Assembly (NCBI GenBank): GCA_019058425.1
Contig: JAHPYZ010000010.1
Span: forward strand, 18,874-82,873
Direction: 5' to 3'
DNA: 64,000 bases
Origin: Promethearchaeota archaeon
Lineage (GTDB): Archaea; Asgardarchaeota; Lokiarchaeia; Sigyniarchaeales; SOKP01
Shown here one piece after another: positions 2,630-36,103 of this stretch. A program made the translations under genes and the position numbers. The notes beneath the pieces were generated by a model, which saw only the letters and a program-made list of their open reading frames with translations, searched no databases and was not told the DNA's origin. The stretch's first letter is position 1. Each line of letters begins with the position of its first letter.

Positions 2630-2658
2630 TTTATTTTTATTCTCCTTTTTTTAAAATA

Positions 2659-4449: not shown

Positions 4450-4453
4450 GAAA

Positions 4454-7672: not shown

Positions 7673-7673
7673 T

Positions 7674-10399: not shown

Positions 10400-10405
10400 C
10401 ATTTA

Positions 10406-10420
10406 TTTTTTTTATTTTTT
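10406..10420 (+). terminator. oligo-T termination signal
   Basis: T8 and T6 runs begin 7 nt after the stop codon of 8909..10399. Archaeal RNA polymerase terminates at oligo-T tracts. Confidence 0.4.
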
Positions 10421-10626
10421 CTTTAGAAATATTCAAGGATTCAATTATAAAATGAGTTTATCTTTTAGATAGGGTTAAAGATCGACAATATATCACATAA
10501 GTTTAAATAACATTACCAGACTATATATGTGTTTAAATCACTCAAGTGGAAGTAATTTTGGAACGCTTAGTACTTAAATTTAAAAAAAGGGGTTGTTAGC
10601 CTCAATTTATTAATTTTTAAAAGTGA

Positions 10627-15323: not shown

Positions 15324-17279
15324 ATGGTAATAAAAAACAATCATTCTGAAAGAGATAATAAAATTGGACAAATTTTTACTCCAAGTTATATTGCTGAATT
15401 TATGGTTAAAAACATTATAAGTTTTGTGACAAAATCAAGAAAAGAACATTCTAATTTAAGAATCCTAGAACCTTCAGTGGGAGAAGGAATTTTTTTAAAA
15501 TATCTCTTAAAATATAACTTTTCTGATATAATTGCTTATGAGATGGATGATAATTTAATAGATACACTTTTGAATTCTTATCCCAATGTACACTTTAAAT
15601 TTGAAAACTTTTTAGGTTCAGATAAAAGTGAAAAATTTGATATAATAATTGGAAATCCTCCTTATTTAGGACAGAATTATAATGCTGAAACTTTTCAAGA
15701 ATATTGTAAGAAATATCCTATTTGTGAGAAATTTTTTGTGGGTAATATGGATCTCTTCTACTATTTCATTCATTTAGGAATAGAAAAATTAAATCCTGGT
15801 GGATTTCTATCCTTTATTACAACTAATTATTGGGTTACAAAATCGAAAAAAACTGGAATTAGATTGTTAAAACCACATGTATTAAGTGAGTGTTTTTTAC
15901 TTCAATATATTGATCTATCTCATCTTCAGCCATTTGAAAGTGCTAAAGGTCAACATAATTGTATTTTTGTTTTACAAAAAAAAACTAAACTAGAGAAACA
16001 AGAAAGGGAAAATAAAGATATTGAAGTAATTCAAATTTTGGAAAATAATGAGATTGACAAAAAATTTTATTTATTAAATAATGTAGATTTAAAAGAATTG
16101 AATTCTGGAAAGAATCTAAGATCTATAAAGAAATATACTTCAACAATCACTAATAATGATTTAAAAAAGGATGAAAGCTGGAATCTTACATACCCCAATG
16201 AGGTAAAATATGTAGTTGATAAAATTGAAAGCTTTTGCTGGGTTAATGGAAAAACCTCATTTTTACAAGATTATTTCTTAATAAGAAATGGGTTAATTCT
16301 TATAAAAGATTCAATTTTCATATTGAAGGAAGGTATAAATTTAAGAATTAAGAAGGAAGATTTCTATATTCGTATAAATGGAGAATTTTTAAAACTCTCT
16401 AAAACTGAGAAATCAAGACTAAAAAAACTATATAAAAGCAAATCAATAAAAGCATACGGGTACGATCAAGATGATTACATAGGATATGTGATTTATTTTA
16501 ACAAAAATGAATTTTGTTCAAAATCTATTCTTGACCGAAACCAACTACTTGAGAATAAGTACCCTGTTCTTTCAAAATATATTAGACAATATGAAAAACA
16601 ATTAAAAGATATTTTAATTAATGCCAAAGAAAACCCAGATAATTTTTATTTTCCTCGAAGAGGCTCTTATATTCACCAATTTGAAGGAAAGGATAAAGAG
16701 AAATTAAAAGATCTTGAGCTTTCGTATGATAACACTGATAAGATATTCTTTAAATTTATATCAAAAGAGAATAGATTTGGATATACAAAATCCACCTATT
16801 ATGCTACTTCAGATACTTATTTCCTATGGCAAAAATATCCCGATGAAGAAATTGATTATTTGTTTATCCTTGCTTATTTAAATTCCAAATTAGTAACTTT
16901 CCTTTTTCATGCAAAAAACATTTCTATAAAAAGAAGTAAGACAAAACTTGAACAGGGGTTACCGATACCTCACCTTATAAATTTCATAGATAAAGAGAAA
17001 AAAGAAATAATAGAATTAATTAAATTCCTTTCTTCATACTTAATTGAGATTAATAATAATACGTATAACATTGAGAATGGAATCATTATTAAAAAAATTC
17101 AGAATATTAAATATTTTTCCTATTATAAAAATATCAAATTAAAACAAAGACTCATTAGATCCTTAGAGAATTATAATTTAGATAACATTAACGATACTTT
17201 AGATCAACTGTTTTTTCAACTTTTTAATTTAGATGGAATTATGATTAATAAATTATTAAATCAATATTATGGTCTTTAA
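15324..17279 (+). CDS. N6-adenine DNA methyltransferase (gamma class, Eco57I/TaqI-like)
   Basis: Motif I LEPSVGEGIF precedes motif IV IIGNPPYLG, followed by a long C-terminal putative target-recognition region. There is no N-terminal nuclease domain and no adjacent endonuclease gene. Confidence 0.8.
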   Translation: MVIKNNHSERDNKIGQIFTPSYIAEFMVKNIISFVTKSRKEHSNLRILEPSVGEGIFLKYLLKYNFSDIIAYEMDDNLIDTLLNSYPNVHFKFENFLGSDKSEKFDIIIGNPPYLGQNYNAETFQEYCKKYPICEKFFVGNMDLFYYFIHLGIEKLNPGGFLSFITTNYWVTKSKKTGIRLLKPHVLSECFLLQYIDLSHLQPFESAKGQHNCIFVLQKKTKLEKQERENKDIEVIQILENNEIDKKFYLLNNVDLKELNSGKNLRSIKKYTSTITNNDLKKDESWNLTYPNEVKYVVDKIESFCWVNGKTSFLQDYFLIRNGLILIKDSIFILKEGINLRIKKEDFYIRINGEFLKLSKTEKSRLKKLYKSKSIKAYGYDQDDYIGYVIYFNKNEFCSKSILDRNQLLENKYPVLSKYIRQYEKQLKDILINAKENPDNFYFPRRGSYIHQFEGKDKEKLKDLELSYDNTDKIFFKFISKENRFGYTKSTYYATSDTYFLWQKYPDEEIDYLFILAYLNSKLVTFLFHAKNISIKRSKTKLEQGLPIPHLINFIDKEKKEIIELIKFLSSYLIEINNNTYNIENGIIIKKIQNIKYFSYYKNIKLKQRLIRSLENYNLDNINDTLDQLFFQLFNLDGIMINKLLNQYYGL

Positions 17280-21178: not shown

Positions 21179-21679
21179 ATGAATCTCCAAGATTTAAAAA
21201 AACAAATGCCCACTATATTTAAACAAGTTAAGAATGATGTGAAAAAGGTATATGGGCGTCATCGGGCCGGATTAAGTCTTGGATTGGTGGAAATGGGTAT
21301 ATATAAAGGAGGATTTATAGGTGGAATGCATTTTGCTCCAGGAACGGATATTGTAATGAATAAGACTCCCCTTAAGATCATTTTAAAAGAACAACCTTAT
21401 AAAATTGTTTGGGCTTATACATATCACATTCTTCTACATGAATATATTCATTCTTTAGGGATACTAGATGAACAACAATGCAGAACTATTACTCTTAGGA
21501 TAAGTGAAAAAATTTTCAAGGAAAATAATCACCCCGCGATCATTCTCGCAAGAAGAGGGATTGCAGCTTATTTTCCAAATTTACCATTAATCTATGCTCC
21601 ACCAGATCTCAGACCTGATGGTATGCCGATTGAATATATATTTAATTTTGATAAAGAAAGTTATGATTATATCTCTTAG
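21179..21679 (+). CDS. hypothetical protein with HExxH motif (putative Zn metallopeptidase)
   Basis: The single motif HILLHEYIHSLG is the only support. Confidence 0.4.
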   Translation: MNLQDLKKQMPTIFKQVKNDVKKVYGRHRAGLSLGLVEMGIYKGGFIGGMHFAPGTDIVMNKTPLKIILKEQPYKIVWAYTYHILLHEYIHSLGILDEQQCRTITLRISEKIFKENNHPAIILARRGIAAYFPNLPLIYAPPDLRPDGMPIEYIFNFDKESYDYIS

Positions 21680-21740
21680 CTGAATAGACCGAATTATCTA
21701 AACTATTAAATTTATTTCCAATTTATTGAAAAAACTGCTT

Positions 21741-22037
21741 TTATGAGTTTAAACATTTATTTAGAGTATTTACTAACTTTTGGTGTGTAAAAGGCTTATT
21801 CAGGAAACCCATCGCTCCATTAGCATACACTTCTTCTTTTATTGTCCTATCTGCACTAGCAAAAATAACTTTTGAATTATGATCAATTTGTAGGATTTCT
21901 TTTAAAGCATCCATACCATTTTTAATAGGCATTCTATAGTCCAAAATTATGATATCAGGCTTTTCAGAAAAAGAACTAAACATTTTTATTGCTTCCTCTC
22001 CATTATTAGCAATGCCTAGAACTTGAAAACCAGCCAT
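21741..22037 (-). CDS. CheY-like response regulator receiver domain
   Basis: DIIILDYRMPIKNGMD (phospho-acceptor Asp), VIFASAD, and the K of LNKPF. The N-terminal acidic pair (IFIAEDD) lies upstream of the first ATG, in the same open frame (open to 22136), with no ATG/GTG/TTG. Confidence 0.7.
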   Translation of the reverse strand: MAGFQVLGIANNGEEAIKMFSSFSEKPDIIILDYRMPIKNGMDALKEILQIDHNSKVIFASADRTIKEEVYANGAMGFLNKPFTHQKLVNTLNKCLNS

Positions 22038-22516
22038 TCCTAATAAAAGTTCATATAGTCTTTGAAGATCTCTATCATCTTCAGCAATAAAAATTGTCCT
22101 TATTCTTATATCACCTACAGAGTATCTAAACCCCTCTTATATCACTTCTGCTTTAGATAATTCCAAGACAGAGTTTTATAATAATTAATTGTACAAACCT
22201 ATTACAGAATTATTACTATTTATGCTTTGACATTTAAAAAAAACCATTAACTCATGAGCTATATTATAAAACTATAAAAATAAGAAGTATTTGAAAGTAA
22301 TTATCGAAAATTTTTTTTGTAGTCAAACCTACATGAACTTAGAGGATGAGCTTTTATCTTTCACCCTTTTCATAAATAATAAAAAATTAGAAATTTTATA
22401 ACAATGCATAAAGAATAGCGAGGGCATAAAAAATTACACCAATATCATCTAGCAATGAAATTATTGATGATGAAAAAGAATCTATTGGAAAAAGTATAGA
22501 TATTACACCAGAACAG

Positions 22517-23047
22517 TTGATATTCAAATGGAAGTATCAAAATGTAGATAAGAAACTAACATATGACATAAAACGATGCATAGGATGTTCATTATGTAAA
22601 ATAATATGCCCTGTTGATGCTATTGAGCTCGGTCCAATTCCAGATATAGCACAGGGAATACTTGATGAAAATAATCCAAAAATTTTAGTAGATCATGATA
22701 AATGCTGTTATTGTATGTTATGCGCAGTAGTATGTCCAAATGATGCATTTCATGAAAATATTACTCCTGAAAACCAAATTGACCTCAAAGAATACCCGTC
22801 TATAGGAAAGTTTTATAAAATAGACATGGAAAAATGTATTGAAGATTCCAAAAATGAGATTTGCAAGCTATGTTTAAATGCTAGGGATAGAAATAATGTT
22901 AAAGAATTCTTTAAAATTCAAAAAGAGTGTCCCGTTGAATGTTTTTCAATTAATTCTCCGATAAAAGGAGAAGTAATTATAAAGAAAAAGAGGATTTTCA
23001 TTCATTTTTTTAAGTATCTCCGAATTTTTATTCATCCCTATTATTAA
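22517..23047 (+). pseudogene. 5' half of a polyferredoxin gene (truncated paralogue of 30142..31218)
   Basis: Aligns to residues ~30-187 of the intact copy, at about 75% nt identity by eye. It keeps CIGCSLCKIICP and CCYCMLCAVVCP. Homology stops at ~22990 (GEVIIKKK) and is followed by an unrelated 18-codon tail. Homology also extends upstream to ~22430 without a canonical start. Confidence 0.7.
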
Positions 23048-23153
23048 GTATCATAAGCTTGAATTTAAGTAGGAAATGATGTCATTACGAAATCTTATAA
23101 TAGCAATAATAAAAATCCCTTTTTTATTGCAACATCGTTTTCTCACATATTTT

Positions 23154-23321
23154 TCAAATTCTATCATCTAATTGCTTCCATGCAAACGTTAGATCTGATA
23201 TTGTATATCTTCCCCAAAATTTGTGGATATTCCGCTCTTTAGGGAGATGCCAGTTTGATCGCTTTGAGATCGCTGCAAATACTTTTACATGGGCGAAGAT
23301 ATCCATTTTCCGTGTGTTCAT
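23154..23321 (-). CDS. short 55-aa ORF of unknown function (possible gene remnant)
   Basis: My own translation is MNTRKMDIFAHVKVFAAISKRSNWHLPKERNIHKFWGRYTISDLTFAWKQLDDRI. Local GC is about 40% against about 28% in the flanks. It is below the size cutoff of the ORF track. Confidence 0.25.
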   Translation of the reverse strand: MNTRKMDIFAHVKVFAAISKRSNWHLPKERNIHKFWGRYTISDLTFAWKQLDDRI

Positions 23322-23513
23322 GTGTTTAGTTGGAAAATAAGCTTAATTAAATTAATGGAAACCTTTGTGTAAATCTTTCCTTTATCAAAACTCACTAGAA
23401 TTCTGCAAAATTAATTCTAGCATTGAAAATATTATATCCTCAACAATATGTTTTAAATACTCAAAAATTAGAAATTTTTAAATAACAAGGAAATAAGAGA
23501 AAAGTACGCATTA

Positions 23514-23585
23514 GTAAAATAAATTTCAAAAGACATTAATAAAAGTAAAATAAATTTCAAAAGACATTAATAAAAGTAAAATAAA
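23514..23585 (+). repeat. 31-nt tandem direct repeat, 2.3 copies
   Basis: The unit gtaaaataaatttcaaaagacattaataaaa occupies 23514-23544 and 23545-23575 with perfect identity. A 10-nt partial third copy runs straight into the ATG at 23586. Confidence 0.9.
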
Positions 23586-25940
23586 ATGATAGTAAGAAAA
23601 ATATTGGCTGCTTTGGGGGGGAGAGATGATGACCATATTTTACAATTTGGTAGCTATAAAATTGAAGGAGAATTAGGTCATGGACAACAAGGAATAGTTT
23701 TACTAATAAAAAATAAAATAGAAAAATATTTTGCTTTAAAAATTTATGACCCAAAAAGAGATGAGGACCCAAAAATTCTAAAGCATGGTATTGATGATTT
23801 TATAAGAGAAGTGTCGATTTTAGTTACAACTAACCATAAAAATATAGTTAAAATCTTTACCGGAGGATATGCACAATGGAAGAATGATTCTGCTTGGGAA
23901 ATAAACGAAAATTTTCCTGAAAACTTAGATAAAGTAATTACTGATGAGACTTTTATTTTTTATTATATAATGAATTATATCGAGGGTTCAAACTTAATAA
24001 AAATTTTTCCAATTTTAGAATATATTAATGATAATGACGAAGAGAAATGGAAAAGTTATCATGGAAAGTCCGATCATAAAGAAATCATACTATTCGAAAG
24101 ATTAATCACCCAAATGTGTAACACTTTAATTTATCATAATGAGGAGGAAATCGTACATAAAGATTTAAAATCAGAAAATATCCTTTATAGTAAACGGGAT
24201 TCTAATTTCATTATTGTAGATTATGGTTTTGCACATCATTACACATCCCCACAAATCAATGGTACCATTTTAAATACTAAAGTCCTCGATATTCCTTCCA
24301 TTAAAGCTCATAATTATGAAAAAATGGATATGGGTCAATTTTCTACGATATTGTTTTTTCTCTTACCATTTTTCAAAAATCAGTATGATAAATTGAGATA
24401 TGAAGGGATTCAAGCCACTATTGAAAGTGGTAGGAACGAAACTCTCGAACATCGATTTAAGGATATGTATGAATTTTACAATTCAATTAAACATAATTTT
24501 ATTACTGGAATTGAATGGAAATTTCAAGTGAAACTAGATGAATATATGGGGCCAAATAATTTTGGGAGATTTAACCAAAAATTAAGAATTCCCGTTTCTG
24601 GGTCAATAATATTAACTGAAGAAGTGAGAAAAATAATTGATACAACAGAGTTTCAAAGATTAAGAGGGGTTAGACAATTAGGACCAACAATTGAAGTATA
24701 TCCTGGAGCAAATCATACTCGATTTGAGCATTCATTGGGAACATACCATCTATCTCTAAAGTACTTAGAACGATTATTAAAAATACCTGATTTTAGAGAA
24801 ATATGCCAACCATTAGATGAATCTATTAAATATTTTATACTTTCTGCATTATTGCATGATATTGGTCATTATCCTTATTCCCATTGGATAGAAGAAATGG
24901 ATTTTGAAGATAATATTTCATTTCCAAAACATGAAGAAAGAGCCGAGATTATTCTTAAAAAAAAAGAAATTAAGGATATCATCGAAAATGTTTGGAATGT
25001 TGATATAGATACGATTTCAGCGATAATTAGAGGTGATGAGATTTTCGAAGAGCAAGTAATTATGAACTCATTTATTAATTCAATAATAGATGTAGATAAG
25101 CTAGATTATCTAGTGCGCGATAGTATCCACTGTGGTGTGAATTATGGAAAAGGAATCGATATTGAACGATTTCTTGATTCATTATATTATATAAAGACCT
25201 CTAAACAAATAGCATTAACCGAGAAGGGTCGTACAGCCTTGTTATCATTATTAACATGCAGAAATATTCTTTATACATCGGTCTATTGGCATAAAACAGT
25301 AAGAGCTTGTGAAGCGATGTTTAAACGATATTTTTTTGAATACGTAGAAATAAATAAAAATAAATTAGAATATATTGAAAGTATATTTAATTTATCAGAT
25401 GACCATTTTGTTTTTACATTATATAATGATCTTAAAGATAATCCCTGTAATTTCTCTAATTTAATCTTGCCTTTTGTGTTTGGAGAAAGTTCTAGAGTGT
25501 TATATAAACCAATATATATTCATTATTTTTTTGGTCTATATATTGAAAAAAAACCTTATCATAACACATCAAAGTTCTTTGATTCTTTGCTTGATTATAG
25601 TTATGTAAAACTTGTAAAAGTTAGTAACGAATTAGTGAAAACTTTAAAAGTGATTATTCCTGAATTAAATGATCACGACATTTTAATAGAAAAAACCCCA
25701 ATAAAACTTCATCATGAAGAATATAAATTAAATCAATTCCAAATCTGGGATCAAAGACAAAAAAGACTAGAAAGTGTTCCTACAGAAGTTAAAACCCTTA
25801 ATACATATTTGAAAACATTCAAACAAGCATATATCTTCTGTAATCCAATATATAGCGAGCAACTAAAAGAAATTTTCCTCGATGATAAACAAAGAGAAAA
25901 AATTTTGGCTGTTATCAATAAAACAATAAAAAATTTATAG
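23586..25940 (+). CDS. Ser/Thr protein kinase fused to SAMHD1-like HD-domain dNTP triphosphohydrolase
   Basis: The N-terminal ~300 aa carry the Gly loop LGHGQQGIV, the VAIK-type lysine FALKIY, the catalytic loop HKDLKSENIL and DYGFA (DFG-like). The C-terminal part aligns by eye to the SAMHD1 core: TTEFQRLRGVRQLG, PGANHTRFEHSLGTYHL, LLHDIGHYPYSH and DVDKLDYLVRD. All His/Asp metal ligands are present. Confidence 0.85.
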   Translation: MIVRKILAALGGRDDDHILQFGSYKIEGELGHGQQGIVLLIKNKIEKYFALKIYDPKRDEDPKILKHGIDDFIREVSILVTTNHKNIVKIFTGGYAQWKNDSAWEINENFPENLDKVITDETFIFYYIMNYIEGSNLIKIFPILEYINDNDEEKWKSYHGKSDHKEIILFERLITQMCNTLIYHNEEEIVHKDLKSENILYSKRDSNFIIVDYGFAHHYTSPQINGTILNTKVLDIPSIKAHNYEKMDMGQFSTILFFLLPFFKNQYDKLRYEGIQATIESGRNETLEHRFKDMYEFYNSIKHNFITGIEWKFQVKLDEYMGPNNFGRFNQKLRIPVSGSIILTEEVRKIIDTTEFQRLRGVRQLGPTIEVYPGANHTRFEHSLGTYHLSLKYLERLLKIPDFREICQPLDESIKYFILSALLHDIGHYPYSHWIEEMDFEDNISFPKHEERAEIILKKKEIKDIIENVWNVDIDTISAIIRGDEIFEEQVIMNSFINSIIDVDKLDYLVRDSIHCGVNYGKGIDIERFLDSLYYIKTSKQIALTEKGRTALLSLLTCRNILYTSVYWHKTVRACEAMFKRYFFEYVEINKNKLEYIESIFNLSDDHFVFTLYNDLKDNPCNFSNLILPFVFGESSRVLYKPIYIHYFFGLYIEKKPYHNTSKFFDSLLDYSYVKLVKVSNELVKTLKVIIPELNDHDILIEKTPIKLHHEEYKLNQFQIWDQRQKRLESVPTEVKTLNTYLKTFKQAYIFCNPIYSEQLKEIFLDDKQREKILAVINKTIKNL

Positions 25941-26031
25941 AATTAAGATTTTTTAAATAAATTTTATTTTGATGAGATTAATAACCCTTATTAGTAGAAA
26001 ACCTTGAAATTTCATAGGTGATTTGTTTAAA

Positions 26032-26160
26032 ATGGAAAGAGTGGAGTTGCGGGTTCTTGCAAAGAACTTTAATGCAATAAAAGCTGTTTCTAATTATGTA
26101 GATTCTGTATATCTTGGAAGTGAAGAGATTAAAATTAGAATGCTTTCAAAAAATGATTAG
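26032..26160 (+). pseudogene. 42-codon fragment resembling the N-terminus of a peptidase U32 family protein
   Basis: My own translation is MERVELRVLAKNFNAIKAVSNYVDSVYLGSEEIKIRMLSKND. It resembles the ELLAPAG..E.lkAAi..GADaVYlG start of U32 proteins and then terminates. Confidence 0.3.
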
Positions 26161-26193
26161 AGGAATAAGAGATTTCATTAACATAAATCCAAC

Positions 26194-26730
26194 TTAAATT
26201 ATTTCTGGTTCTTTTAAAATCTCATACCATCTTTGGATTTTAGAAAACCATCTCTCAATTGCATTCACACCATCTACTAAAGCACCCTTACTTTGTTGGA
26301 TATAACCCAATATTTGGGGATTTATACTGGTTGCAATATTTTCCCCACATCTAAAATCGCTTCTTAAAGCAAAAATCGGTCCCCGTTCAATTCCAGTATA
26401 ATATCCAATTTCACTTGCGACACCATCATCAATTTGATGTCCTCCATCTAAAACTGCTAGGAGACAATCAGAATCACGCATTAGCATATTATTTATATGG
26501 GGAATTTTATTATTAAATTCGATGCAATATTTTAATCTATCCTCATATTTTTCTAATTTTGATAAATAATCATTATTAAATTTTTTTCCACACTCTAAAA
26601 ATGGATCATTTATAAGAATTCCAATTTCTTGGATTTTTGGCTTAATTAATTTTTCCAAAACATACCTTCCAGTTTCAGAGAATCCAAATTGATTTGCGAG
26701 ATATGCTTTTACTTGCTTCATATTATTCAA
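26194..26730 (-). CDS. nucleoside 2-deoxyribosyltransferase / DNPH1(Rcl)-family protein
   Basis: N-terminal YLANQFGF (YxAGPxF-like) and the catalytic-Glu region LDGGHQIDDGVASEIGYYTG...GPIFAL, as in PF05014-type proteins. Confidence 0.7.
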   Translation of the reverse strand: MNNMKQVKAYLANQFGFSETGRYVLEKLIKPKIQEIGILINDPFLECGKKFNNDYLSKLEKYEDRLKYCIEFNNKIPHINNMLMRDSDCLLAVLDGGHQIDDGVASEIGYYTGIERGPIFALRSDFRCGENIATSINPQILGYIQQSKGALVDGVNAIERWFSKIQRWYEILKEPEII

Positions 26731-26896
26731 ACTAGAATATCTATTATTTGTTAAAATTTATATTCTTTCTCAGCAGAAAAAACTTGTTCTTCTAGGAAGG
26801 ATTTGTTATTGATCTTAATTCTTAAATTCTTATTCGATTCTGATCGTAAATTAATTCTTTAGCCTCTACTGTTAAAGCCTTTATCTCGGAGTTCTA

Positions 26897-27268
26897 CTAA
26901 TTCTTCGGTATTCTGGTCACTTTTCCAAGCAGTAAAAAAGTGTTTAGATTAAGACAATTGACTTGAACCTGGATTATTATTTTCTGGAAAAATAATTGCA
27001 TAATAAATGTTTCTTTATGTTGTAATTTTAATTTAATTCGGATATCATAAAGTAGATCTTTTACAATAATACAAATGTCTTCTGTAACTTCAAAAATTCC
27101 TCGTCCAGTGTTAAATACATAAGTAATAATATCCATCTGTTCATGGATAAAAATTAGATCACATTCCTCACAAGCAACTCCAATACTAAATCTAGGCTTA
27201 TAGGTATATGGGGGATTATTTATTTTCTTAAAACAAATTGAACACTCATCAAATCCTTTTATTAGCAC
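26897..27268 (-). CDS. small Cys-rich (Zn-ribbon-like) hypothetical protein
   Basis: GTG start. CSIC...(20 aa)...CEEC sits in the N-terminal half. The C-terminal half is low complexity, so the true length is uncertain. Confidence 0.35.
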   Translation of the reverse strand: MLIKGFDECSICFKKINNPPYTYKPRFSIGVACEECDLIFIHEQMDIITYVFNTGRGIFEVTEDICIIVKDLLYDIRIKLKLQHKETFIMQLFFQKIIIQVQVNCLNLNTFLLLGKVTRIPKN

Positions 27269-27587
27269 AAATTAAAATTGAGTATTTTGTATCTAATGAA
27301 ACTTTTTTATTCCTATTTTTATACATTATATCAATATGTTAGAATGGAATAACTTTTAGCAATTAATTAGAGTTATCATGATAAACGTTAGAGAATTTAG
27401 CAATATGATACTCAAGAGTTGGATCACAAAATTCTTATAGAGATTACAGATAAATAAAAGATTTTTTTATAAATTTAAAAAGATCATAGTAATAATATTA
27501 ATAGGAATAAAAGTTTCATACAAAATTGCGATTTACTCTGTAAATATTTCAGGTAAATCATATCTAATTCAGACAGGGTATTTTAAT

Positions 27588-29978
27588 ATGAAAGATAGTA
27601 AGAACCTTAATTGTCCAGCAAAGAACCGATCTAAAATTAGGTGCTATAATCCAAATTCATCTAATTCTAAAAAGTATTGGGAAAATAATTCCATTCAAAA
27701 AAAAAATCCAATTTTTAATTTTCAAAATTATAATTCATATATTTATAGAAATGAGATTTTTGAATATATTGTTAAAAATATATATACATTGATTTCTGAA
27801 TTAAAATGTAAATTAAATAAATCGTTTCAAGTAGAATGCATTCATATATATGATAACATTTTAATTTCAATACCATATGACAACCAAAATAAAAAATTTA
27901 ATTACTTCTATCAAAGTTTTGGATCTAGAAATGTAAAAAATCCGAAATATATCGCTGCTTCATTAATATATTTCAATTTCGTTAGATCAGGAGAAAATAT
28001 TAAGCGTAAATTGTTAGTGAGAATTTTAAGTTTAAATTTATCAAGTTTTAATCGTGTGTGTTCTACTATTTCCAACTATCTAAAAAGAATCCCTGAATAT
28101 GATTTCATTTTTGAGTTTATAAATGCCGATAGGCTAACTGAAGATGAATATCTTGTACTAACAAATAAATATATTACTAGATACATAGATTATCTGAATA
28201 GTAAAAATCCTGATTATATCAATTTTTCGAGCAGTGATGATGAATCTATTTTCGATTTGGTTTTGAACATCATAGGATCTATAGAAGGTGAGGACAAATT
28301 TCAACTTTTTTTTGAAAGTTTAAAAAAAAAGAAGCCAAAAATATTAGCAGCAGTAATGTGTTTTATTTTCCTAAAATATGAAAAAGATATTAAATTGAGT
28401 AAAACCTATTTTCTTGATTTATTGCTTGAAAATAATTATTTTTATATACCACCAACTAACTTCACCGAAGTCTTACATCAAATAATAGTAGAATTTTTTG
28501 TATTAGATCAAGATAAATATCAGAAGAAAGTTGAACATTATTTAATTCAATACATTATTGAATTAGAATCTTATTTCTGTTCTCATTTAAATAACCTTAA
28601 AGATGATTTAATTGATAAAGGAATAGCTATCTTTGATTACGCTATAATAAATGATTTTCCAATCTTGGATAAAAATAAAAATAACGAAATAGATTATTAT
28701 TTTCCCCAGAATTTCGCTTTTTCTTTACTTTACTTCACCTTTAAAACTACAAAAGGATTAGGAGATTTAGCAACTCCCACGAAATTGGACCAATGTTTTG
28801 GATCTGAATTTAATTTTAAACATGTGAATGATCGAAACAGTAATCGGTTATATGATTATATATCAGATTACATAGGAAGATATAAAGGGCAGATATATAG
28901 TAGAGACACTTTTATTAAAATGATGAGAAAATCTTTGAAAGGATTTTATCACATTGAGACTCATTTTTTACTTGAATTATATCAATCTTTAGAATTGGAA
29001 CCAAAAGAATTTGGAGATAAATTATATATTCACAATACACCTGGAACCAGTGGCGTATTACGTGTAATTCGAAATAAAACATCGTTTAGCGACCCTAATA
29101 CATTTGAAAATATTCGTGATTTTATAAGAACAAATCATATAGGACATCATAAAAATTACTTTATTGATTGGATTAATAATATACAAGAATTAAAGCGAAA
29201 GGATTTTAAACATCAAAGTATTACTTATCCGTTTAGATGGAAAGAAGAACGTTTAGATATCATTAATGACAATCAATTGAGATTAGGACTTTATAGCTTT
29301 CTTAATGATATTTGGAGAGAAAACTTTCCTCGTGATATATTCATGTCTAGTGATAATCCCAGAGCATCAATGCTAAAATTTTATGGATCCTATGAAGAAC
29401 ATTTAAAATTTGATAACATAGAAGACTTCTTTAAAGATGAACTAAAAACATATGATTCATCCTTTTTTCTGTGTAAACACGTTCAAAAAGTTTTTGAGTA
29501 TTATAAAAGAAATAGAATAGGTAAAAGACCGGACCATCCACCGATTTTGGCTTATATAATAAAAAATAATAATAATACTATAGCAATTGAATCACCAGTT
29601 TGGAAGCCTATTGAAAATTCAGATTTATTTAATATTGGGCATATAGATATTATTCTTTTCATAAATGGATATTTAATAATTGCCGATTATAAGCAAAATG
29701 AGGATAAGATATATAGATCACTACCACAACTCACTACTTATGGCATATTATTAAAAGATAGATTAGAAGATTATTATGTCCCCATTAACAACAATATTTT
29801 GTGTATAGGTTTTAGTAAAGATTTAGCATATTCATTCAATCCTGAAGATTTATATCCTAAACTTCTACAATTTGTTAAATTCATGAATTCACAACGAATA
29901 TCTTCCTTGAAAAGTAGAAAAATCCCAAAAAAAACAATAAGAACAGATCTTTATTCTGATTTAAAAAACTTGAAATGA
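27588..29978 (+). CDS. large protein with C-terminal RecB/Cas4-type PD-(D/E)xK nuclease domain and N-terminal TFIIB/cyclin-box-like repeats
   Basis: The C-terminus has all four RecB-family motifs in order: IAIESPVW (E), GHIDIILF (hhD), IIADYKQ (D/ExK) and QLTTYGILL (QxxxY). The N-terminal two thirds carry recurring K-x-P-K-x-[IL]-A-A-x-h-x-[YF] motifs (KNPKYIAASLIYF, KKPKILAAVMCFIF, and a weaker NFAFSLLYFTF). These resemble the GKSPxxhAAAhhYhA signature of TFB/TFIIB cyclin repeats. Confidence 0.7.
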   Translation: MKDSKNLNCPAKNRSKIRCYNPNSSNSKKYWENNSIQKKNPIFNFQNYNSYIYRNEIFEYIVKNIYTLISELKCKLNKSFQVECIHIYDNILISIPYDNQNKKFNYFYQSFGSRNVKNPKYIAASLIYFNFVRSGENIKRKLLVRILSLNLSSFNRVCSTISNYLKRIPEYDFIFEFINADRLTEDEYLVLTNKYITRYIDYLNSKNPDYINFSSSDDESIFDLVLNIIGSIEGEDKFQLFFESLKKKKPKILAAVMCFIFLKYEKDIKLSKTYFLDLLLENNYFYIPPTNFTEVLHQIIVEFFVLDQDKYQKKVEHYLIQYIIELESYFCSHLNNLKDDLIDKGIAIFDYAIINDFPILDKNKNNEIDYYFPQNFAFSLLYFTFKTTKGLGDLATPTKLDQCFGSEFNFKHVNDRNSNRLYDYISDYIGRYKGQIYSRDTFIKMMRKSLKGFYHIETHFLLELYQSLELEPKEFGDKLYIHNTPGTSGVLRVIRNKTSFSDPNTFENIRDFIRTNHIGHHKNYFIDWINNIQELKRKDFKHQSITYPFRWKEERLDIINDNQLRLGLYSFLNDIWRENFPRDIFMSSDNPRASMLKFYGSYEEHLKFDNIEDFFKDELKTYDSSFFLCKHVQKVFEYYKRNRIGKRPDHPPILAYIIKNNNNTIAIESPVWKPIENSDLFNIGHIDIILFINGYLIIADYKQNEDKIYRSLPQLTTYGILLKDRLEDYYVPINNNILCIGFSKDLAYSFNPEDLYPKLLQFVKFMNSQRISSLKSRKIPKKTIRTDLYSDLKNLK

Positions 29979-30141
29979 AGAATATCAAGAGATCATAAAT
30001 ATATTCAACGTTATGGTCAATAATATATTTTATTTATAATAATAAGAAGATTACTAGTTTTTTACGTCTAACTTATAACAATTAATCTTATTTGAAATTA
30101 AATAATACGATAATTAGATATATTTCATATTTATTACAGGA

Positions 30142-31218
30142 TTGGTAAAGATTACTTCTGACTTAAAAATAGAAAAAGAACAGGATAAGGAAGATATAAT
30201 AGAAAAAATTTTAGATATAGATCCAGATCAATTAATTTTAAATTGGAAATTTAAGAATGTAAACAAAAAGCTAACCTATGATATTAAAAAGTGTATAGGG
30301 TGTAGTTTATGTAAACTAGTCTGTCCTGTTAATGCAATAGAGTTAGGCCCCATCCCTGATATTGCTCAAGAAAAAATTGATAAAAGTAATCCCAAAATAC
30401 TAATAGACCATGAGAAATGTTGTTACTGTATGCTATGTGCAATAGTTTGTCCTAACGATGCATTTCATGAGAATATAGAGCCAGAAGGCCAAATTGACCT
30501 AAATGAATTTCCAACCATTGGAAAATTCTACAAGTTAGATTTGGACAAGTGCATCGAAGATGAGAAAATTGAAATTTGTAAATTATGTTTAGATGTCCGA
30601 AAAAGAAACAATATTGAAGAATATTACAAAATTGGAAAAGAATGTCCAGTTAAGTGTTTTCATATTGACTCCCCAATTCAAGGAGAAGTCATCATAAAAA
30701 AGAATATGTTGCACAAATGCACTCCTGAAAATTGTAAAGCTTGCATTAATATCTGCCCAACTGAATCCTTTTTTATTCCTGAAAGTGCTGAAGATGTGAA
30801 AAAATATGGAAAAATTGCATGTAATGAAGATGAATGTTTTTACTGTGGAGCTTGTGAAAATTCTTGTCCTGATGATTTAATACTTGTTGATCGAAAGGAG
30901 GTTGAGATCCTAGATCCTAAAAAGCCTGGTAACTATCCATGGGTACAAGGATGGACAGTTAGTATAAAAGAAATACTGAGAAAAGCATTAATTCGGGGTA
31001 AAAAACAAATAGAAATTCCAATTATTGAAGAGGAAGTTAAAAAACTAAAGGAAAAAATTGAAGATACAATACCTCAATTATCAAAAGAAGACCGAGAAAA
31101 ATTGAATGAGTTAGATAATAAAATTCAAAATTTCCTTAGATCTCCAAAAATTAGATATTGGATAAAGGATAAAAAAACAGATAAAATAAGAAAAGAATTG
31201 AAAAAGCTCTTAACTTAA
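30142..31218 (+). CDS. polyferredoxin (four 4Fe-4S cluster motifs), intact copy
   Basis: CIGCSLCKLVCP, CCYCMLCAIVCP, CKACINICP and CFYCGACENSCP, followed by a Lys/Glu-rich C-terminal tail. TTG start. Confidence 0.85.
   Translation: MVKITSDLKIEKEQDKEDIIEKILDIDPDQLILNWKFKNVNKKLTYDIKKCIGCSLCKLVCPVNAIELGPIPDIAQEKIDKSNPKILIDHEKCCYCMLCAIVCPNDAFHENIEPEGQIDLNEFPTIGKFYKLDLDKCIEDEKIEICKLCLDVRKRNNIEEYYKIGKECPVKCFHIDSPIQGEVIIKKNMLHKCTPENCKACINICPTESFFIPESAEDVKKYGKIACNEDECFYCGACENSCPDDLILVDRKEVEILDPKKPGNYPWVQGWTVSIKEILRKALIRGKKQIEIPIIEEEVKKLKEKIEDTIPQLSKEDREKLNELDNKIQNFLRSPKIRYWIKDKKTDKIRKELKKLLT
30787..31111 (+). repeat. 325-bp direct repeat, copy A (inside the intact polyferredoxin gene)
   Basis: A base-by-base comparison with 34592-34916 gives a constant offset of 3805, 258 bp identical (30787-31044), then mismatches at 31045 and 31072. 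Confidence 0.9.
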
Positions 31219-31365
31219 CTTTTCAATTATTATAAAAAGATAGAAATAAAAATTTCAGGAAATATAATCAATTCTCCAAAACAAAAATGTCAATATGATA
31301 GTTGGATGAATTAATGTTCAATCTCCATATAAACTCAATTATACCAAAGAAAACTCTGCAAATAA

Positions 31366-31779
31366 TCACTTGATGGGAACACCAGATTTGCTTAAAATTA
31401 TTCCTTCTATAACATCTTCTAACTCTTTCAGCTGCATTACTGGTTTAGAACTATGATAAATAAACCTTAATTGCGGGGGAATCTGTCCAGGAACCTTTCT
31501 TTTTATTTCCTCAATCGATATTTTAACTTTGAAAATCTTTTCAAAAAGTTCAGGTGACCCAGAGATTGATAGAGTAACTCCTTTACCCTCGATTGTAAAT
31601 CCACGTTTTTTAAGTTCTGATATAACTCTTTGTATAGTTTGGGGAGATGATATGAATGGTTTTGGATCGGTGCCTACGATACCCTCCTGTAAAAGAGAAC
31701 GACCAGACAACGACCTCAAATAAACTGTTGCCATGATTCTTTTTTGGCTAGATTGATTTTTATCTTCACTTTTACCCAT
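31366..31779 (-). CDS. stand-alone subtilase pro-domain-like protein (paralogue of the N-terminus of 31823..34309)
   Basis: ATVYLRSLSGRS...ISSPQTIQRVISELKKRGFTIEGKGVTLSISGSPELFEKIFKVKISIEEIKRKVP aligns with ASVILKSKSGLS...LPENKSIKSTVNLLNEAGFDIEAQTDVGISFSGPKELFESEFGVTISKREIKIKRP of the neighbouring protease. The pattern resembles the pro-kumamolisin-type activation domain. Confidence 0.55.
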   Translation of the reverse strand: MGKSEDKNQSSQKRIMATVYLRSLSGRSLLQEGIVGTDPKPFISSPQTIQRVISELKKRGFTIEGKGVTLSISGSPELFEKIFKVKISIEEIKRKVPGQIPPQLRFIYHSSKPVMQLKELEDVIEGIILSKSGVPIK

Positions 31780-31822
31780 TTAATTGGCACTCTTCTTTTT
31801 ATACATAAATTAAATTTGTTAT

Positions 31823-34309
31823 TTATCGTTTTGATTCTCCTAAGCAATGGGCACAATTATCATATCTGTGTCGATGGGCTTGGGGTATATCACCGAATGG
31901 TTTTCTATTATAAGGACTCATCATATTCATCCAAGCACAAGTTTTGTTATGAACTTCCTTAGTTTTTCGATTCCCAACAAAAGCATAATGGGATATATTA
32001 ATCATTTCAGTAAAACTACCAATTTGTTCACCATCTATTAGTAGTGTAGCACGAATTGGATATGCTCCGTCTGGAGTGTTTTCAGGTACAGTGTAGTAGA
32101 TAGTAACTTTTGTTTTCTCATTGGATTTAAAATCCATTCCTCCTAGCGAACCCATTTTTCCGATATGAGACAGTGTAGAATAAAGGCTACTTTCATGAAT
32201 GACATTCATATTATTCAATGTTGCTGAATGCGTTAACCGTTTGATCATTCTGACCAAAACTTCTGATTTTGGAGCAAACTTGGTAAGATCCACTTGAAGA
32301 TCAGCTTGATGATATTTACCTAATGGACCTTCCATATAAAAACTGAAGGAAGAAGTCCCACCAGGAATAATATCTACGATTGTAATGTTCTTCCACGCAA
32401 CATTGTTCTTATCCCGAACCATTTTCCTGAAATCAGCAGCAGTTTGAATTGCGTTTAAATCTGGAGCAGGATCATCAGGACTATCTAAAATACTAATCAA
32501 ACAAAAATGACCTGTTCTAGGAATTTGAGCATCTGACCAGATGATAGGTCCAATAACCCGGAATTCACCTGGTTCCAGATTTTGTATATCAGTTTGCCCA
32601 ATCTCCTCCCAACCTGCTGGATTGGGTAGCATACCAGGAATTGTGAAGTATACAGTTGCTGTACAACTTCCAATAACTGTACCACGGTTCTGAACTCGCA
32701 AATAAACATAATTGTCTTGTCCATCTTCTACTTGATCACTTAAATCGTGCCGATGCTTAACAGTTATTCCCAACATTTCTGAAGGATCAACTAATTCCTC
32801 AGTACGTACAATTATATCTGGACTAGCCCACAAACGGTTTAGAACTACTGGCTCTGTTCCATTATCCTCGATACTATCGCGTATATAAGCATTGAACTTA
32901 TCTTGCTGTAGAAAGTTTAATGCAGCTTCTCCATCAATTAGACCAAATCCAGTCGCGGCATCCCATCCAATTGTTGCGTTATCTGGACCTGCACTATTAC
33001 TTGAACCGGTTTGAATGTCTTGAGATGAATTCTCTAGGATGTTTTTTACTGCCATGGGAGTTAGATTTGGATGTTGCTCCAGTATTAAAGCACAAATGCC
33101 AGCAGTTTGTGGAGCAGCTGCAGATGTCCCACTACATGCACACCATCCATCATTAGGTGCAGTATTATCCCCTAAAGGAAATGCTTGAGCCGCTAAACCC
33201 TGATCCATTGTACAATCCGGTTCAGTAGGCAACATGATTAATATTGCTGCAGGAATCTCACCAACTAGGCCTACAACATCAGGGCAATGTCTCTGAGGAT
33301 TAGTATAGACAAAACTATCGTAACTACTGGCATAATTAGAAGCACGAAATCCTCCGCCCTGAATTGGATAAGCACCGCCAACTGATATCAAGCTGGGATG
33401 AGCAAGTGATTGAACTGACATTGCTGGATCATCAGTATGTCCATTACCTGCTGCAAAGATAACCACAATACCATTAGCTACAGCATTAGCGATCTCTAGA
33501 AGCAGTGCGAGATCCTGACCTCCAGAACCCCAACTACAAGTAATGATATCTGGATTTTGATACTGTACAGCAGCTTGAAATCCAGCTAAAGGAAAGTTAT
33601 TCCATCCTCCATCTGTATATTTAACAAATGAGAAAGTAGCTCCTGGTGCTACAGCTAAGATATTTGCAGCCATTGCTGTTCCATGTCCATATTCATCAAC
33701 ATTTTCATTTAGTCCACCCACAGCTCTAATATCATCAATATTATACCCTTGGGCTGAATAGTAGGGATGTTGGAAGAAACCAGTATCAACCATTGAGATG
33801 CGTACACCAGCACCGGTGATTCCAGCACCATGTAGGGTTGAAACGTTAAGTATCGTCGGGACATCGTTCAGCACGTTTAGAAAATAGTAAGACGGATTAG
33901 GGGTGGGAGGATTTGGGTCTTGAAAAGGAAAAGCAGGAATAGCCAGCTGGACGGATTCAACAAGCTCAGAAATTCGGTTACTAATCATTTTTGGTTGACT
34001 AGCCTCAAAAAATGAAACCGAACGTTCTGCAATTTCTGGTCTTTTAATCTTAATCTCCCGTTTACTAATAGTAACTCCAAATTCAGATTCAAAGAGTTCT
34101 TTAGGACCAGAGAATGAGATTCCTACATCAGTTTGTGCTTCAATATCAAATCCTGCTTCATTCAATAAGTTAACTGTGCTTTTAATACTTTTATTTTCAG
34201 GTAAGAATTCATCCAATGCACTAAATGAGAATTTATCAAGATCTTTTTCAATAGACAATCCACTCTTTGATTTTAATATCACTGAGGCTATGACTTTTTC
34301 ATCAACCAT
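31823..34309 (-). CDS. S8 family subtilisin-like serine protease, no signal peptide, with C-terminal extension and Ada-like Zn motif
   Basis: Catalytic triad in D-H-S order: RISMVDTGF, YGHGTAMAANI, CSGTSAAAPQTAG, with oxyanion FAAGNGH. The N-terminus MVDEKVIASVILK lacks a hydrophobic leader. The tail is HNKTCAWMNMMSPYNRKPFGDIPQAHRHRYDNCAHCLG. GC is visibly higher (about 43%) than the surroundings. Confidence 0.9.
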   Translation of the reverse strand: MVDEKVIASVILKSKSGLSIEKDLDKFSFSALDEFLPENKSIKSTVNLLNEAGFDIEAQTDVGISFSGPKELFESEFGVTISKREIKIKRPEIAERSVSFFEASQPKMISNRISELVESVQLAIPAFPFQDPNPPTPNPSYYFLNVLNDVPTILNVSTLHGAGITGAGVRISMVDTGFFQHPYYSAQGYNIDDIRAVGGLNENVDEYGHGTAMAANILAVAPGATFSFVKYTDGGWNNFPLAGFQAAVQYQNPDIITCSWGSGGQDLALLLEIANAVANGIVVIFAAGNGHTDDPAMSVQSLAHPSLISVGGAYPIQGGGFRASNYASSYDSFVYTNPQRHCPDVVGLVGEIPAAILIMLPTEPDCTMDQGLAAQAFPLGDNTAPNDGWCACSGTSAAAPQTAGICALILEQHPNLTPMAVKNILENSSQDIQTGSSNSAGPDNATIGWDAATGFGLIDGEAALNFLQQDKFNAYIRDSIEDNGTEPVVLNRLWASPDIIVRTEELVDPSEMLGITVKHRHDLSDQVEDGQDNYVYLRVQNRGTVIGSCTATVYFTIPGMLPNPAGWEEIGQTDIQNLEPGEFRVIGPIIWSDAQIPRTGHFCLISILDSPDDPAPDLNAIQTAADFRKMVRDKNNVAWKNITIVDIIPGGTSSFSFYMEGPLGKYHQADLQVDLTKFAPKSEVLVRMIKRLTHSATLNNMNVIHESSLYSTLSHIGKMGSLGGMDFKSNEKTKVTIYYTVPENTPDGAYPIRATLLIDGEQIGSFTEMINISHYAFVGNRKTKEVHNKTCAWMNMMSPYNRKPFGDIPQAHRHRYDNCAHCLGESKR

Positions 34310-34549
34310 TTTTTACTCCACTCAAAATATAGATTAAGTTTAATGTGTTGTTTTTAATATAAATTATTTTGAAAATATCTATAAAATACATACAATTAAT
34401 CACCCTCCTTTAATAATTTAATATGGATTTTTAGAAAAATTTGACGCTAATGTATATTATACAAATTTGTTATTTAATAATTACTAAATTATTCCTTTTA
34501 AATAATTCATATAATTGAATAGTATATTAAAAGAGATTTCGAGTCTTTT

Positions 34550-35032
34550 ATGAAATTTTGTCCTTCTGAATCTTTTTTCATCCCTGAGAGCGCTGAAGAT
34601 GTGAAAAAATATGGAAAAATTGCATGTAATGAAGATGAATGTTTTTACTGTGGAGCTTGTGAAAATTCTTGTCCTGATGATTTAATACTTGTTGATCGAA
34701 AGGAGGTTGAGATCCTAGATCCTAAAAAGCCTGGTAACTATCCATGGGTACAAGGATGGACAGTTAGTATAAAAGAAATACTGAGAAAAGCATTAATTCG
34801 GGGTAAAAAACAAATAGAAATTCCAATTATTGAAGAGGAAGTTAAAAAATTAAAGGAAAAAATTGAAGATACAATACTTCAATTATCAAAAGAAGACCGA
34901 GAAAAATTGAATGAGTAAAATGAAAAAATTCAAGATTTCCTTAGATCTCCAAAAATTAGATATTGGATAAAAGACAAAAAAACATATAAGATTGCTAATG
35001 AATTGAATAAATTTCTTAAAAAAAAAAAATAA
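34550..35032 (+). pseudogene. 3' half of a polyferredoxin gene (continuation of the 22517 fragment) with an in-frame TAA
   Basis: Aligns to residues ~205-358 of the intact copy. It keeps CFYCGACENSCP. At 34916 a TAA replaces the TTA of the intact copy, and the reading frame stays homologous beyond it up to the TAA at 35030. Confidence 0.75.
34592..34916 (+). repeat. 325-bp direct repeat, copy B
   Basis: Near-identical to 30787-31111 (2 mismatches before the TTA/TAA difference). The sequence on both sides of the tract is homologous but much more diverged. Confidence 0.9.
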
Positions 35033-36001: not shown

Positions 36002-36103
36002 TGGGAGAGGGGGGATTTGAACCCCCGACCCCTTGGTCCCAAACCAAGATTAACGCCGTAGAGAAAATCCCTACAGTATCATACCAAGCTAGACTACCCT
36101 CCC
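36002..36103 (-). tRNA. tRNA-Pro (anticodon UGG) with ~28-nt intron at a non-canonical position
   Basis: The reverse complement folds by hand. The acceptor pairs GGGAGGG with CTCTCCC (7 bp, one G-U) and has discriminator A. The T arm is GGGGG-TTCAAAT-CCCCC. The anticodon arm is CTTGG-TTTGGGA-CCAAG, which gives UGG. The D loop AGCTTGGTA carries the GG. An extra CTGTAGGGATTTTCTCTACGGCGTTAAT hairpin segment lies between the D arm and the anticodon stem. Confidence 0.8.

Follow-up and report, generated by a model that had tools for sequence, protein, structure and literature searches.

A gene fusion of a Hanks-type protein kinase and a SAMHD1-like HD dNTPase in a Promethearchaeota genome

The fusion gene and its two halves

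The window considered here is a stretch of 64,000 nucleotides (nt) from a Promethearchaeota archaeon (assembly GCA_019058425.1, contig JAHPYZ010000010.1, positions 18,874 to 82,873 of the forward strand). It harbours a gene whose single open reading frame (ORF) joins a Hanks-type Ser/Thr protein kinase to an HD-domain protein resembling SAMHD1, a hydrolase of deoxynucleoside triphosphates (dNTPs), hereafter dNTPase. The fusion gene lies in an insertion that splits a polyferredoxin gene, together with a gene for a nucleoside 2-deoxyribosyltransferase (NDT)-like protein, several further ORFs, a second copy of the polyferredoxin gene and a subtilase gene (Table 1). Loci in other genomes are designated by L numbers.

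Table 1. Positions of the features discussed. Coordinates refer to the window unless another locus is named; aa, amino acids; AF2, AlphaFold2.
Feature	Position	Strand	Basis or remark
Complete kinase-HD fusion gene	23586..25940	+	ORF, Pfam Pkinase+HD+HD_assoc_2, full-length homologues, AF2 model
Hanks-type Ser/Thr protein kinase domain, aa ~24-304	23655..24497	+	Pfam, PDB matches, invariant residues, AF2/Foldseek
Conserved ordered linker, aa ~305-335, W311..FGRF..R334-I-P336	24498..24590	+	Conservation, pLDDT, kinase-less protein of L002
HD catalytic lobe, aa ~336-520	24591..25145	+	Mapping onto human SAMHD1, Pfam HD, PDB matches
C-terminal lobe (HD_assoc_2 and beyond), aa ~521-784	25146..25937	+	Pfam HD_assoc_2, Foldseek, residue mapping
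Perfect tandem duplication of 31-nt unit AGTAAAATAAATTTCAAAAGACATTAATAAA	23513..23574	+	Promoter/5' region, ends 11 nt before ATG
Strain-specific insertion, 11.6 kb, carrying the fusion gene	22990..34565		Absent from collinear L132 and L133
5' half of split polyferredoxin gene	22467..22989	+	79.8% nt identity to L132 13912-14437
3' half of split polyferredoxin gene	34557-34982	+	80.0% nt identity to L132 14485-14910
NDT-like gene	26194-26730	-	Within insertion
Orphan ORF796	27588-29978	+	Within insertion
Full-length polyferredoxin copy	30142-31218		Within insertion
Subtilase (Peptidase_S8) gene, 828 aa	31823-34309	-	Within insertion; G+C content 0.39 vs ~0.30 background
ORF123 and ORF137	within 22990..34565		Within insertion
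Eco57I/TaqI_C-type DNA methyltransferase gene	15324-17279	+	PADLOC MTase_II / type IIG-like; 6 kb upstream of fusion
Receiver-domain ORF, 98 aa	21741-22037	-	Apparently N-terminally truncated (starts at profile position 22 of 111)
tRNA, 102 nt	36002-36103	-	Rfam, 40.6 bits; missed by ARAGORN in bacterial mode
Kinase-less derivative, 469 aa	L002 9995-11404		Uncultured archaeon; 57% identical to HD half in the window

The fusion gene consists of one ORF that starts with ATG, encodes 784 aa followed by a stop codon and contains no internal stops. An earlier note on this DNA, written from the letters alone, had claimed a covalent fusion of a kinase with a SAMHD1-like HD protein, and this is borne out by the single ORF and by more than 100 homologues carrying both domains. 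The motifs it quoted are found in the translation: LGHGQQGIV, FALKIY (K52), HKDLKSENIL (D193, N198) and DYGFA (D212) in the kinase half, and FQRLRGVRQLG, RFEHSLG (H382), HDIGHYPYSH (H424/D425) and DVDKLDYLVRD (D504) in the HD half. A profile search places both domains above the curated Pfam cut-offs, well past anything expected by chance. Pkinase (PF00069) scores 64.2 bits (E=1.7e-17; cut-off 31.7), with its best stretch covering profile positions 1-152 of 263 and thus part of the profile, and PK_Tyr_Ser-Thr (PF07714) spans residues 26-294 with 39 bits (cut-off 23.1). HD is recognised at residues 379-475 (E=5.2e-10, 40.1 bits; cut-off 22), and HD_assoc_2 exceeds its cut-off at residues 524-614 (E=2e-7). 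No NCBIfam model reaches its cut-off on the protein.

Homologues were sought among 5.8 billion protein clusters, and the best 120 matches were used. These clusters are 37-89% identical to the fusion protein and span 95-100% of the query; 118 of them, coming from independent assemblies, have the architecture Pkinase+HD(+HD_assoc_2), and 110 have a length of 740-870 aa. Their public labels are generic ("HD domain-containing protein", "protein kinase", "PknD"). Since independent assemblies share one ORF with this architecture, a frameshift or assembly artefact is excluded, and the possibility that two genes had been joined by a sequencing error, which the earlier note had raised itself, did not hold. 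The AF2 model of the full-length protein has a predicted local distance difference test score (pLDDT) of 90.8 and a predicted template modelling score (pTM) of 0.76.

The kinase half contains a glycine loop (GHGQQG), the lysine K52 (nt 23739-41), the alphaC glutamate E75, the catalytic loop H191-K-D193-x-K-x-x-N198 (nt 24156-24179) and the motif D212-Y-G214 (nt 24219-27). In an alignment of 83 full-length homologues of 36-88% identity, K52, E75, H191, D193, N198, D212, G214 and D248 are invariant. The HKD motif of the catalytic loop identifies a non-RD kinase, a type for which phosphorylation of the activation loop is unnecessary. The PDB sequence matches of this half are ordinary Ser/Thr kinases, with CDPK1 and MARK at E~1e-12. 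An AF2 model of residues 1-340, the kinase only, reaches a pLDDT of 85.3 and a pTM of 0.82 and is matched by Foldseek to CHK1, Aurora A, AMPK and M. tuberculosis PknI with a TM-score on the target (TMt) of 0.65-0.73 and a probability of 1.00. Neither the PDB sequence matches nor Foldseek reveal a specific eukaryotic affinity. The activation segment (residues 215-235) is the only part of the kinase that is poorly conserved and modelled with low confidence (pLDDT 62-68). By profile, catalytic residues and bilobal fold, the domain falls within the Hanks-type kinase superfamily, and it is apparently an active Ser/Thr kinase. The earlier note's view of a canonical kinase, rather than a pseudokinase or an unrelated fold, agrees with the invariant residues, the fold shared with CHK1, Aurora A and PknI, and the selection acting on this half (see below), all of which speak against a pseudokinase.

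A scan of 1.84 billion representative proteins with the kinase half gave 16 matches at E<=1e-30, and relaxing the limit to E<=1e-10 raised their number to 33. Most of the strongest are fusions of ~730-860 aa; a few are shorter and may represent fragments. Past the fusion clade the scores drop to generic kinases at ~1e-11. This kinase clade seems to exist essentially only in the HD fusion. Its use as a portable sensor on other effectors was considered and rejected, as no such protein was seen.

The HD half carries, in its catalytic lobe, the metal ligands H382, H424, D425 and D504, the catalytic residues R379, H428, H433 and H449, and the residues D352, Q357 and R360 of allosteric site 1 (A1). 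The C-terminal lobe contributes Y567 (SAMHD1 Y374), H569/K570 (H376/K377) and R637/K641 (R451/K455). The residues were mapped by aligning the human SAMHD1 sequence, which is identical to PDB 7ujn_A, with 110 family members, to which the following conservation values refer. The metal ligands correspond to SAMHD1 H167/H206/D207/D311 and are 100% conserved. The residues at the positions of R164, H210, H215, H233, Q149, L150, Y315, D319 and Y374 are identical to those of SAMHD1 and 99-100% conserved, and the position of K312, likewise identical, is 93% conserved; from structural studies of SAMHD1, we take these ten residues to serve in catalysis or substrate binding. The guanine pocket of A1 (D137/Q142/R145/R451) is represented by D352/Q357/R360/R637 with 89-99% conservation, H376 by H569 (99%) and K377 by K570, this pair being 99-100% conserved. 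In allosteric site 2, most contacts are kept; SAMHD1 R352 is replaced by T, and where SAMHD1 has N358, R372 and K523 the residue either varies or is a different one.

Among HD hydrolases, a "SAMHD1-like" family (COG1078 YdhJ), to which 3IRH, 2Q14, 2HEK and SAMHD1 belong, has been set against a "Dgt-like" family, the hallmarks of the former being the A1 guanine pocket and H376 (PMC7854603). The best PDB sequence match of the HD half is Aq_1910 (2hek, 1.6e-33), followed by BT4208 (2q14) and EF1143 (2o6i/3irh), and further matches include the SAMHD1 proteins of a fungus (9mr6), C. elegans and human (~2e-19). The sole Dgt-like match, 7lwz, is marginal (E=0.0037), and the model TIGR01353 (dGTP_triPase) scores 19.4 bits on the fusion protein against a cut-off of 152.35. 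With the full-length AF2 model, Foldseek aligns 440-515 columns to the SAMHD1-like set (EF1143, Aq_1910, SAMHD1) at TMt 0.65-0.81, a C-terminal lobe and fold that Dgt-like enzymes lack. Together with the residue mapping, these results rule out both a non-dNTPase HD clade and the Dgt-like family (COG0232). By all sequence and structure criteria tried, the HD half is a genuine SAMHD1-like dNTPase, as the earlier note had supposed from its motifs. It is apparently an active, allosterically regulated dNTPase. The note had also held that the metal ligands are intact and that both halves look catalytically competent, which the invariance of the key residues supports.

The closest solved relatives, EF1143 (E. 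faecalis), Aq_1910 (A. aeolicus) and BT4208 (B. thetaiotaomicron), resemble the HD half in the HD_assoc_2 C-terminal lobe, the A1 pocket and the H376-type histidine. Unlike the fusion protein, they are stand-alone enzymes of ~370-480 aa without a kinase, and the fusion clade forms a branch separate from such enzymes, with conserved residues of its own and an N-terminal extension that joins the kinase. Human SAMHD1 (7ujn, 4bzb, 6txc) shares the fold of the HD and C-terminal lobes (TMt 0.65-0.70), the metal ligands, the catalytic His and Arg residues, the substrate pocket including L150/Y374, the A1 pocket and H376/K377. However, sequence identity is ~20%, Pfam finds no SAM domain in the fusion protein, a site equivalent to T592 is lacking, and the prokaryotic proteins are closer (2hek at 1.6e-33 vs ~2e-19), so that a metazoan SAMHD1 orthologue is ruled out.

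The linker between the halves contains the invariant or near-invariant residues W311, F326, G327, F329, R334 and P336. Its pLDDT is ~88-94 in the full-length model and falls to ~53-57 when the HD half is omitted; according to the models, the linker belongs to the HD module, which it extends at the N-terminus. The full-length pTM exceeds the ~0.57 attainable from the larger domain alone, from which we infer that AF2 is confident of a fixed relative orientation of the kinase and HD halves.

A neighbour-joining tree of the HD part was built from 110 fusions, three kinase-less proteins, 27 HD-only outgroup proteins and SAMHD1. The fusions and the three kinase-less proteins form one clade that excludes SAMHD1 and the HD-only outgroups (Planctomycetota, Chlorobi and others), and the kinase-less forms nest beside fusions within it. 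This topology indicates that the fusion arose once and that the kinase was occasionally lost later. The kinase-less protein of L002 begins exactly at the conserved linker, and no kinase gene was found near it.

Both halves are under purifying selection of similar strength. The ratio of nonsynonymous to synonymous substitution rates (dN/dS) between the gene in the window and its 93%-identical counterpart in L081 amounts to 0.28 in the kinase half and 0.35 in the HD half, and with the 77%-identical L083 it is 0.17 and 0.21. The core gene CDC48 has a dN/dS of 0.035 between the window and a sister genome, so by this measure the fusion gene evolves ~10 times faster.

Distribution, mobility and genomic setting

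Named bacterial relatives of the fusion protein occur in Bacteroidota, Treponema, Marinimicrobia, Chthoniobacterales, Chitinophagaceae and Victivallales, and archaeal ones are assigned to Promethearchaeota, Heimdallarchaeaceae and an "uncultured archaeon". The protein of the window is closer to homologues from Bacteroidota (51%) than to other Asgard ones (43-45%). The earlier note had called the architecture unusual for an archaeon. It is indeed rare, and the Asgard copy is real, but it is no archaeal speciality, as the named relatives are mostly bacterial. When 185,579 species-representative genomes were scanned with HD patterns, which yielded mainly HD-only proteins, the best 80 matches included only two fusions, a close one in L001 and a distant one in L075. 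A metagenome scan with kinase patterns, which were too generic, recovered one family member (L092).

Between L081 and the window, nt identity (93.3%) is confined to a segment that starts ~100 nt upstream of the ATG and ends ~30 nt short of the stop codon. The flanks are unrelated, and in L081 neither the NDT-like gene nor ORF796 is linked to the fusion. Promoter and gene thus behave like a transferable cassette. In the window, a 31-nt unit immediately upstream of the gene is perfectly duplicated in tandem (Table 1), whereas it is single-copy in L081; the duplication may double a promoter or TATA-like element.

Further evidence for mobility comes from sister Promethearchaeota genomes. On both sides, contigs L132 and L133 match the window collinearly at ~80% nt identity, yet they lack the insertion and the fusion gene and have, at the corresponding position, one intact single-copy polyferredoxin gene. 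In the window, the borders of the insertion are marked by a truncated ORF (22517-23047) from the 5' half of the polyferredoxin gene on the left and by an ORF (34550-34918) in its 3' half on the right. The full-length polyferredoxin copy inside the insertion is 73% identical to the left fragment in its 5' half and 94.7% identical to the right fragment in its 3' half (30761-31213). The GC content of the insertion is 0.265 in its first part and 0.362 in its second, compared with ~0.31 in the flanks. No integrase or recombinase was recognised in the 11.6 kb.

A third Promethearchaeota genome (L135) has ORF796 directly upstream of a 358-aa polyferredoxin at the same locus, as in the window. The variable region upstream (1-6139), which replaces the segment with the kinase-HD and NDT-like genes, contains unrelated small genes, a DUF4062 protein and a 1626-aa protein with weak matches to CHAT, NPHP3_N (NACHT-like) and LRR, an NLR-like architecture. 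That different genes occupy the same region points to a variable hot spot, and the split and duplicated polyferredoxin locus looks like a hot spot of recombination or integration. Judged by these comparisons, the fusion is a horizontally acquired, mobile accessory gene in this Asgard genome. A special evolutionary link between Asgard archaea and eukaryotes was considered but gained no support, because bacterial enzymes are nearer to the HD half than SAMHD1 is, the kinase lacks a specific eukaryotic affinity and the gene was inserted recently.

The NDT-like gene is convergent with the fusion gene, a pairing absent from L081 and L083. Its 178-aa product matches PF05014 (nucleoside 2-deoxyribosyltransferase-like, E=8e-11) and gives weak PDB matches to NDTs; the potential substrates of such a protein are the deoxynucleosides that a dNTPase would release. 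ORF796 (796 aa) is represented by 11 clusters among the 5.8 billion, all of them Promethearchaeota-like. Pfam yields nothing over threshold for it, giving just a weak PD-(D/E)XK hint (residues 683-725), and it has no relative in the PDB. The subtilase gene, with its higher GC content and its absence from the sister genomes, is probably foreign DNA of an origin differing from that of the kinase-HD segment.

Possible function

In animals, SAMHD1 is controlled in trans by kinases of the cyclin-dependent type (CDK). Both domains and this mode of control are thus already known, and what appears to be new is their covalent combination. A full-text literature search, in which subscription journals are poorly covered, found no paper describing a kinase-SAMHD1-like fusion. 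Animals and bacteria alike use dNTPases as antiviral effectors, which have to be tightly regulated (PMC12265719, PMC13519002). In the Clover system, which consists of the dNTPase CloA and the nucleotidyltransferase CloB, the toxicity of the dNTPase requires a dedicated regulator, and the defence can be set off by a phage-induced rise in dTTP (PMC12265719). dGTPase domains often occur in fusion with immune signalling domains; a 2026 survey of dGTPase/SAMHD1 fusions reports SAM, NLR, TIR, CARD, death and SIR2 domains, and the word "kinase" is absent from it (PMC13519002).

By analogy with SAMHD1 and EF1143, binding of (d)GTP and dNTPs at the allosteric sites would assemble an active tetramer, which would hydrolyse dNTPs to deoxynucleosides and triphosphate. 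Oligomerisation would also bring the attached kinase near other subunits, where it could phosphorylate the enzyme itself, in auto or in trans, or a partner, thereby gating dNTP depletion. The dNTP pool would then collapse only under defined conditions. The likeliest of these may be attack by a virus or mobile element, in which case the gene would act as a one-gene nucleotide-depletion immunity module; the main alternative would be control by the state of replication.

That the fusion protein is a kinase-gated dNTP-depleting enzyme, probably acting in antiviral defence, is given a probability of roughly 55%, and we infer both the direction of regulation and the role in defence. Among possible roles, antiviral defence appears most likely because the gene is accessory, mobile and fast-evolving and because dNTPases have precedents in immunity. 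Some neighbours are also of a defence type, namely the DNA methyltransferases of restriction-modification (R-M) type directly upstream of the fusion in L001 and L092 and the CHAT-NACHT-LRR-type protein of L135. The fuller proposal is that of an undescribed one-gene immune module in which a SAMHD1-type dNTPase is switched by its own kinase, and which was invented once, spread horizontally between Bacteria and Asgard archaea, and converged with the CDK-SAMHD1 pair. It is more tentative and falls somewhat short of even odds.

Known defence systems resemble the fusion in part. Like the anti-phage dGTPases and Clover, it combines a dNTP-depleting HD enzyme with a dedicated regulator. Its HD half, however, belongs to another subfamily, as the TIGR01353 score indicates, and the regulator is a fused protein kinase instead of a nucleotide second messenger or a TIR, NLR, CARD, SIR2 or SAM domain. 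With PD-T4-6, Mad6 of MADS, MkoA of Mokosh and Stk2-type proteins it shares the Hanks-type kinase domain, but an HD dNTPase is missing from all of those systems, and the kinase clade of the fusion is sharply separate. The NCBIfam model MADS6 stays at 26.9 bits, its cut-off being 460, and the partner genes of PD-T4-6, MADS and Mokosh were not found in the window. The best PADLOC matches are the kinase models of defence systems (E~1e-13, 46-50 bits, residues ~20-223); all 25 PADLOC families listed are kinase models, with no dGTPase model among them. A known kinase-containing defence system was ruled out on these grounds, since the PADLOC matches involve the generic kinase core.

Several results weigh against the proposal of kinase gating in antiviral defence. 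The PADLOC matches reflect generic kinase similarity only, Pfam Pkinase scoring better. SAMHD1 T592 has no equivalent, its place in the alignment being taken by a Leu that is not conserved. The resemblance to SAMHD1 under CDK control, for which a structure with a phosphomimetic T592 (4zwg) is among the Foldseek matches, is consequently an analogy and not homology, and here the kinase resides in the same chain instead of being a separate CDK. No phospho-acceptor could be pinpointed; residues specific to the fusion clade, such as S499, S432 and Y431, are weak candidates. At the ~12 fusion loci inspected for neighbours, the gene is monocistronic, and neither a conserved neighbour or operon partner nor a consistent defence island was found. 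The Eco57I-type methyltransferase gene of the window, for which no nuclease partner could be recognised, is kept at the same position in L132-L134, in sister genomes without the fusion, and so does not mark a defence island here but is a lasting trait of the lineage. Relatives of the kinase half were not found in viral contigs, and PHROGs gave generic matches only; the gene thus has no direct link to viruses in these data, and a viral origin was rejected.

The remaining points concern nucleotide metabolism. In L130, a 1.8-Mb bacterial contig, the fusion lies between the genes for dihydrofolate reductase (DHFR) and thymidylate synthase (ThyA) (7264-11090), the latter starting 1 nt past the end of the fusion gene; these flanks link it to dTTP synthesis. 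A gene for a PfkB-family kinase precedes the fusion in L085/L086, the kinase-less gene of L002 is situated between those for IMPDH and adenosylhomocysteinase (SAHH), and the NDT-like gene adjoins the fusion in the window. Neighbours of the thyA/folA type make a serious rival of the idea that the protein is a housekeeping regulator of the dNTP pool, which trims dNTPs outside replication and is linked by its kinase to the growth or replication state, with no part in immunity. This idea would agree with the four nucleotide-metabolism contexts, with the intact (d)GTP/dNTP-sensing allosteric sites and with the fact that SAMHD1-like dNTPases occur widely among prokaryotes as ordinary genes (PMC7854603). 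Nevertheless, the fusion is too sporadic for such a function, being rare among the 185,579 species representatives and absent from the sister genomes. It also moves as a cassette between unrelated contexts, its phylogeny crosses the divide between Bacteria and Archaea, and it evolves ~10 times faster than a housekeeping gene. Housekeeping control is therefore considered unlikely, although it comes nearest to the proposed role in defence.

A distinctly less probable explanation reverses the logic, with the HD half as the sensor and the kinase as the effector. dNTPs raised by a virus would fill the allosteric sites and induce tetramer formation, the kinase would become active by proximity, and host or viral targets would be phosphorylated in an abortive infection resembling that of Stk2 or PD-T4-6, and dNTP hydrolysis would act in parallel as a second effector. 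Conservation is as high in the allosteric pocket as among the catalytic residues, which would fit a sensor, and Clover offers a precedent for triggering by phage-induced dTTP (PMC12265719). A non-RD kinase with a poorly conserved, low-confidence activation loop, and the existence of kinase-only anti-phage systems that give the best PADLOC matches, are also compatible with this course. However, the invariance of the HD catalytic residues implies that hydrolysis itself is under selection, and no stand-alone or otherwise fused members of the kinase clade were seen. In addition, the kinase-less derivatives (P0109/L002, P0120) retain the HD module and not the kinase, which suggests that the dNTPase is the autonomous core function. 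The weakest alternative, a sequencing error joining two genes or a decaying fusion with a relic kinase, could draw on the low confidence of the activation segment and the partial Pkinase coverage, yet it is excluded by more than 100 independent assemblies with the same ORF, the span of PK_Tyr_Ser-Thr, the invariant catalytic residues, the complete kinase fold and a kinase dN/dS (0.17-0.28) that is the same as or below that of the HD half.

Should the kinase-gated dNTPase indeed protect against viruses, it would represent a new type of single-gene defence, one that Bacteria and Asgard archaea have in common, and a new way of regulating defence by nucleotide depletion. Failing that, it would still be a new mode of regulating dNTP pools in prokaryotes. 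dNTP-depleting enzymes are potent but toxic antiviral effectors, and the manner of their restraint is of current interest for SAMHD1 as well as for bacterial dGTPases. The fusion family may be regarded as a compact natural experiment in this respect, with regulator and effector in one chain and the determinants of SAMHD1 preserved. It offers more than 100 diverse homologues, some of them bacterial, and natural kinase-less derivatives as controls. A possible gating of a SAMHD1-type tetramer by phosphorylation, the site at which it would act and a repeated evolution of kinase control would thereby become testable.

Other features of the window

The truncated receiver-domain ORF sits in a stretch of 788 nt (21679-22466) to the left of the split polyferredoxin gene. 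L132 has 304 nt at this place, which blastn does not align with the stretch in the window.

Several features fit the archaeal host. The length of the tRNA indicates an intron, and an archaemetzincin gene, also present, fits an Asgard archaeon. The CDC48 protein of the window is 91-94% identical to proteins of metagenome-assembled genomes labelled "Promethearchaeota archaeon".

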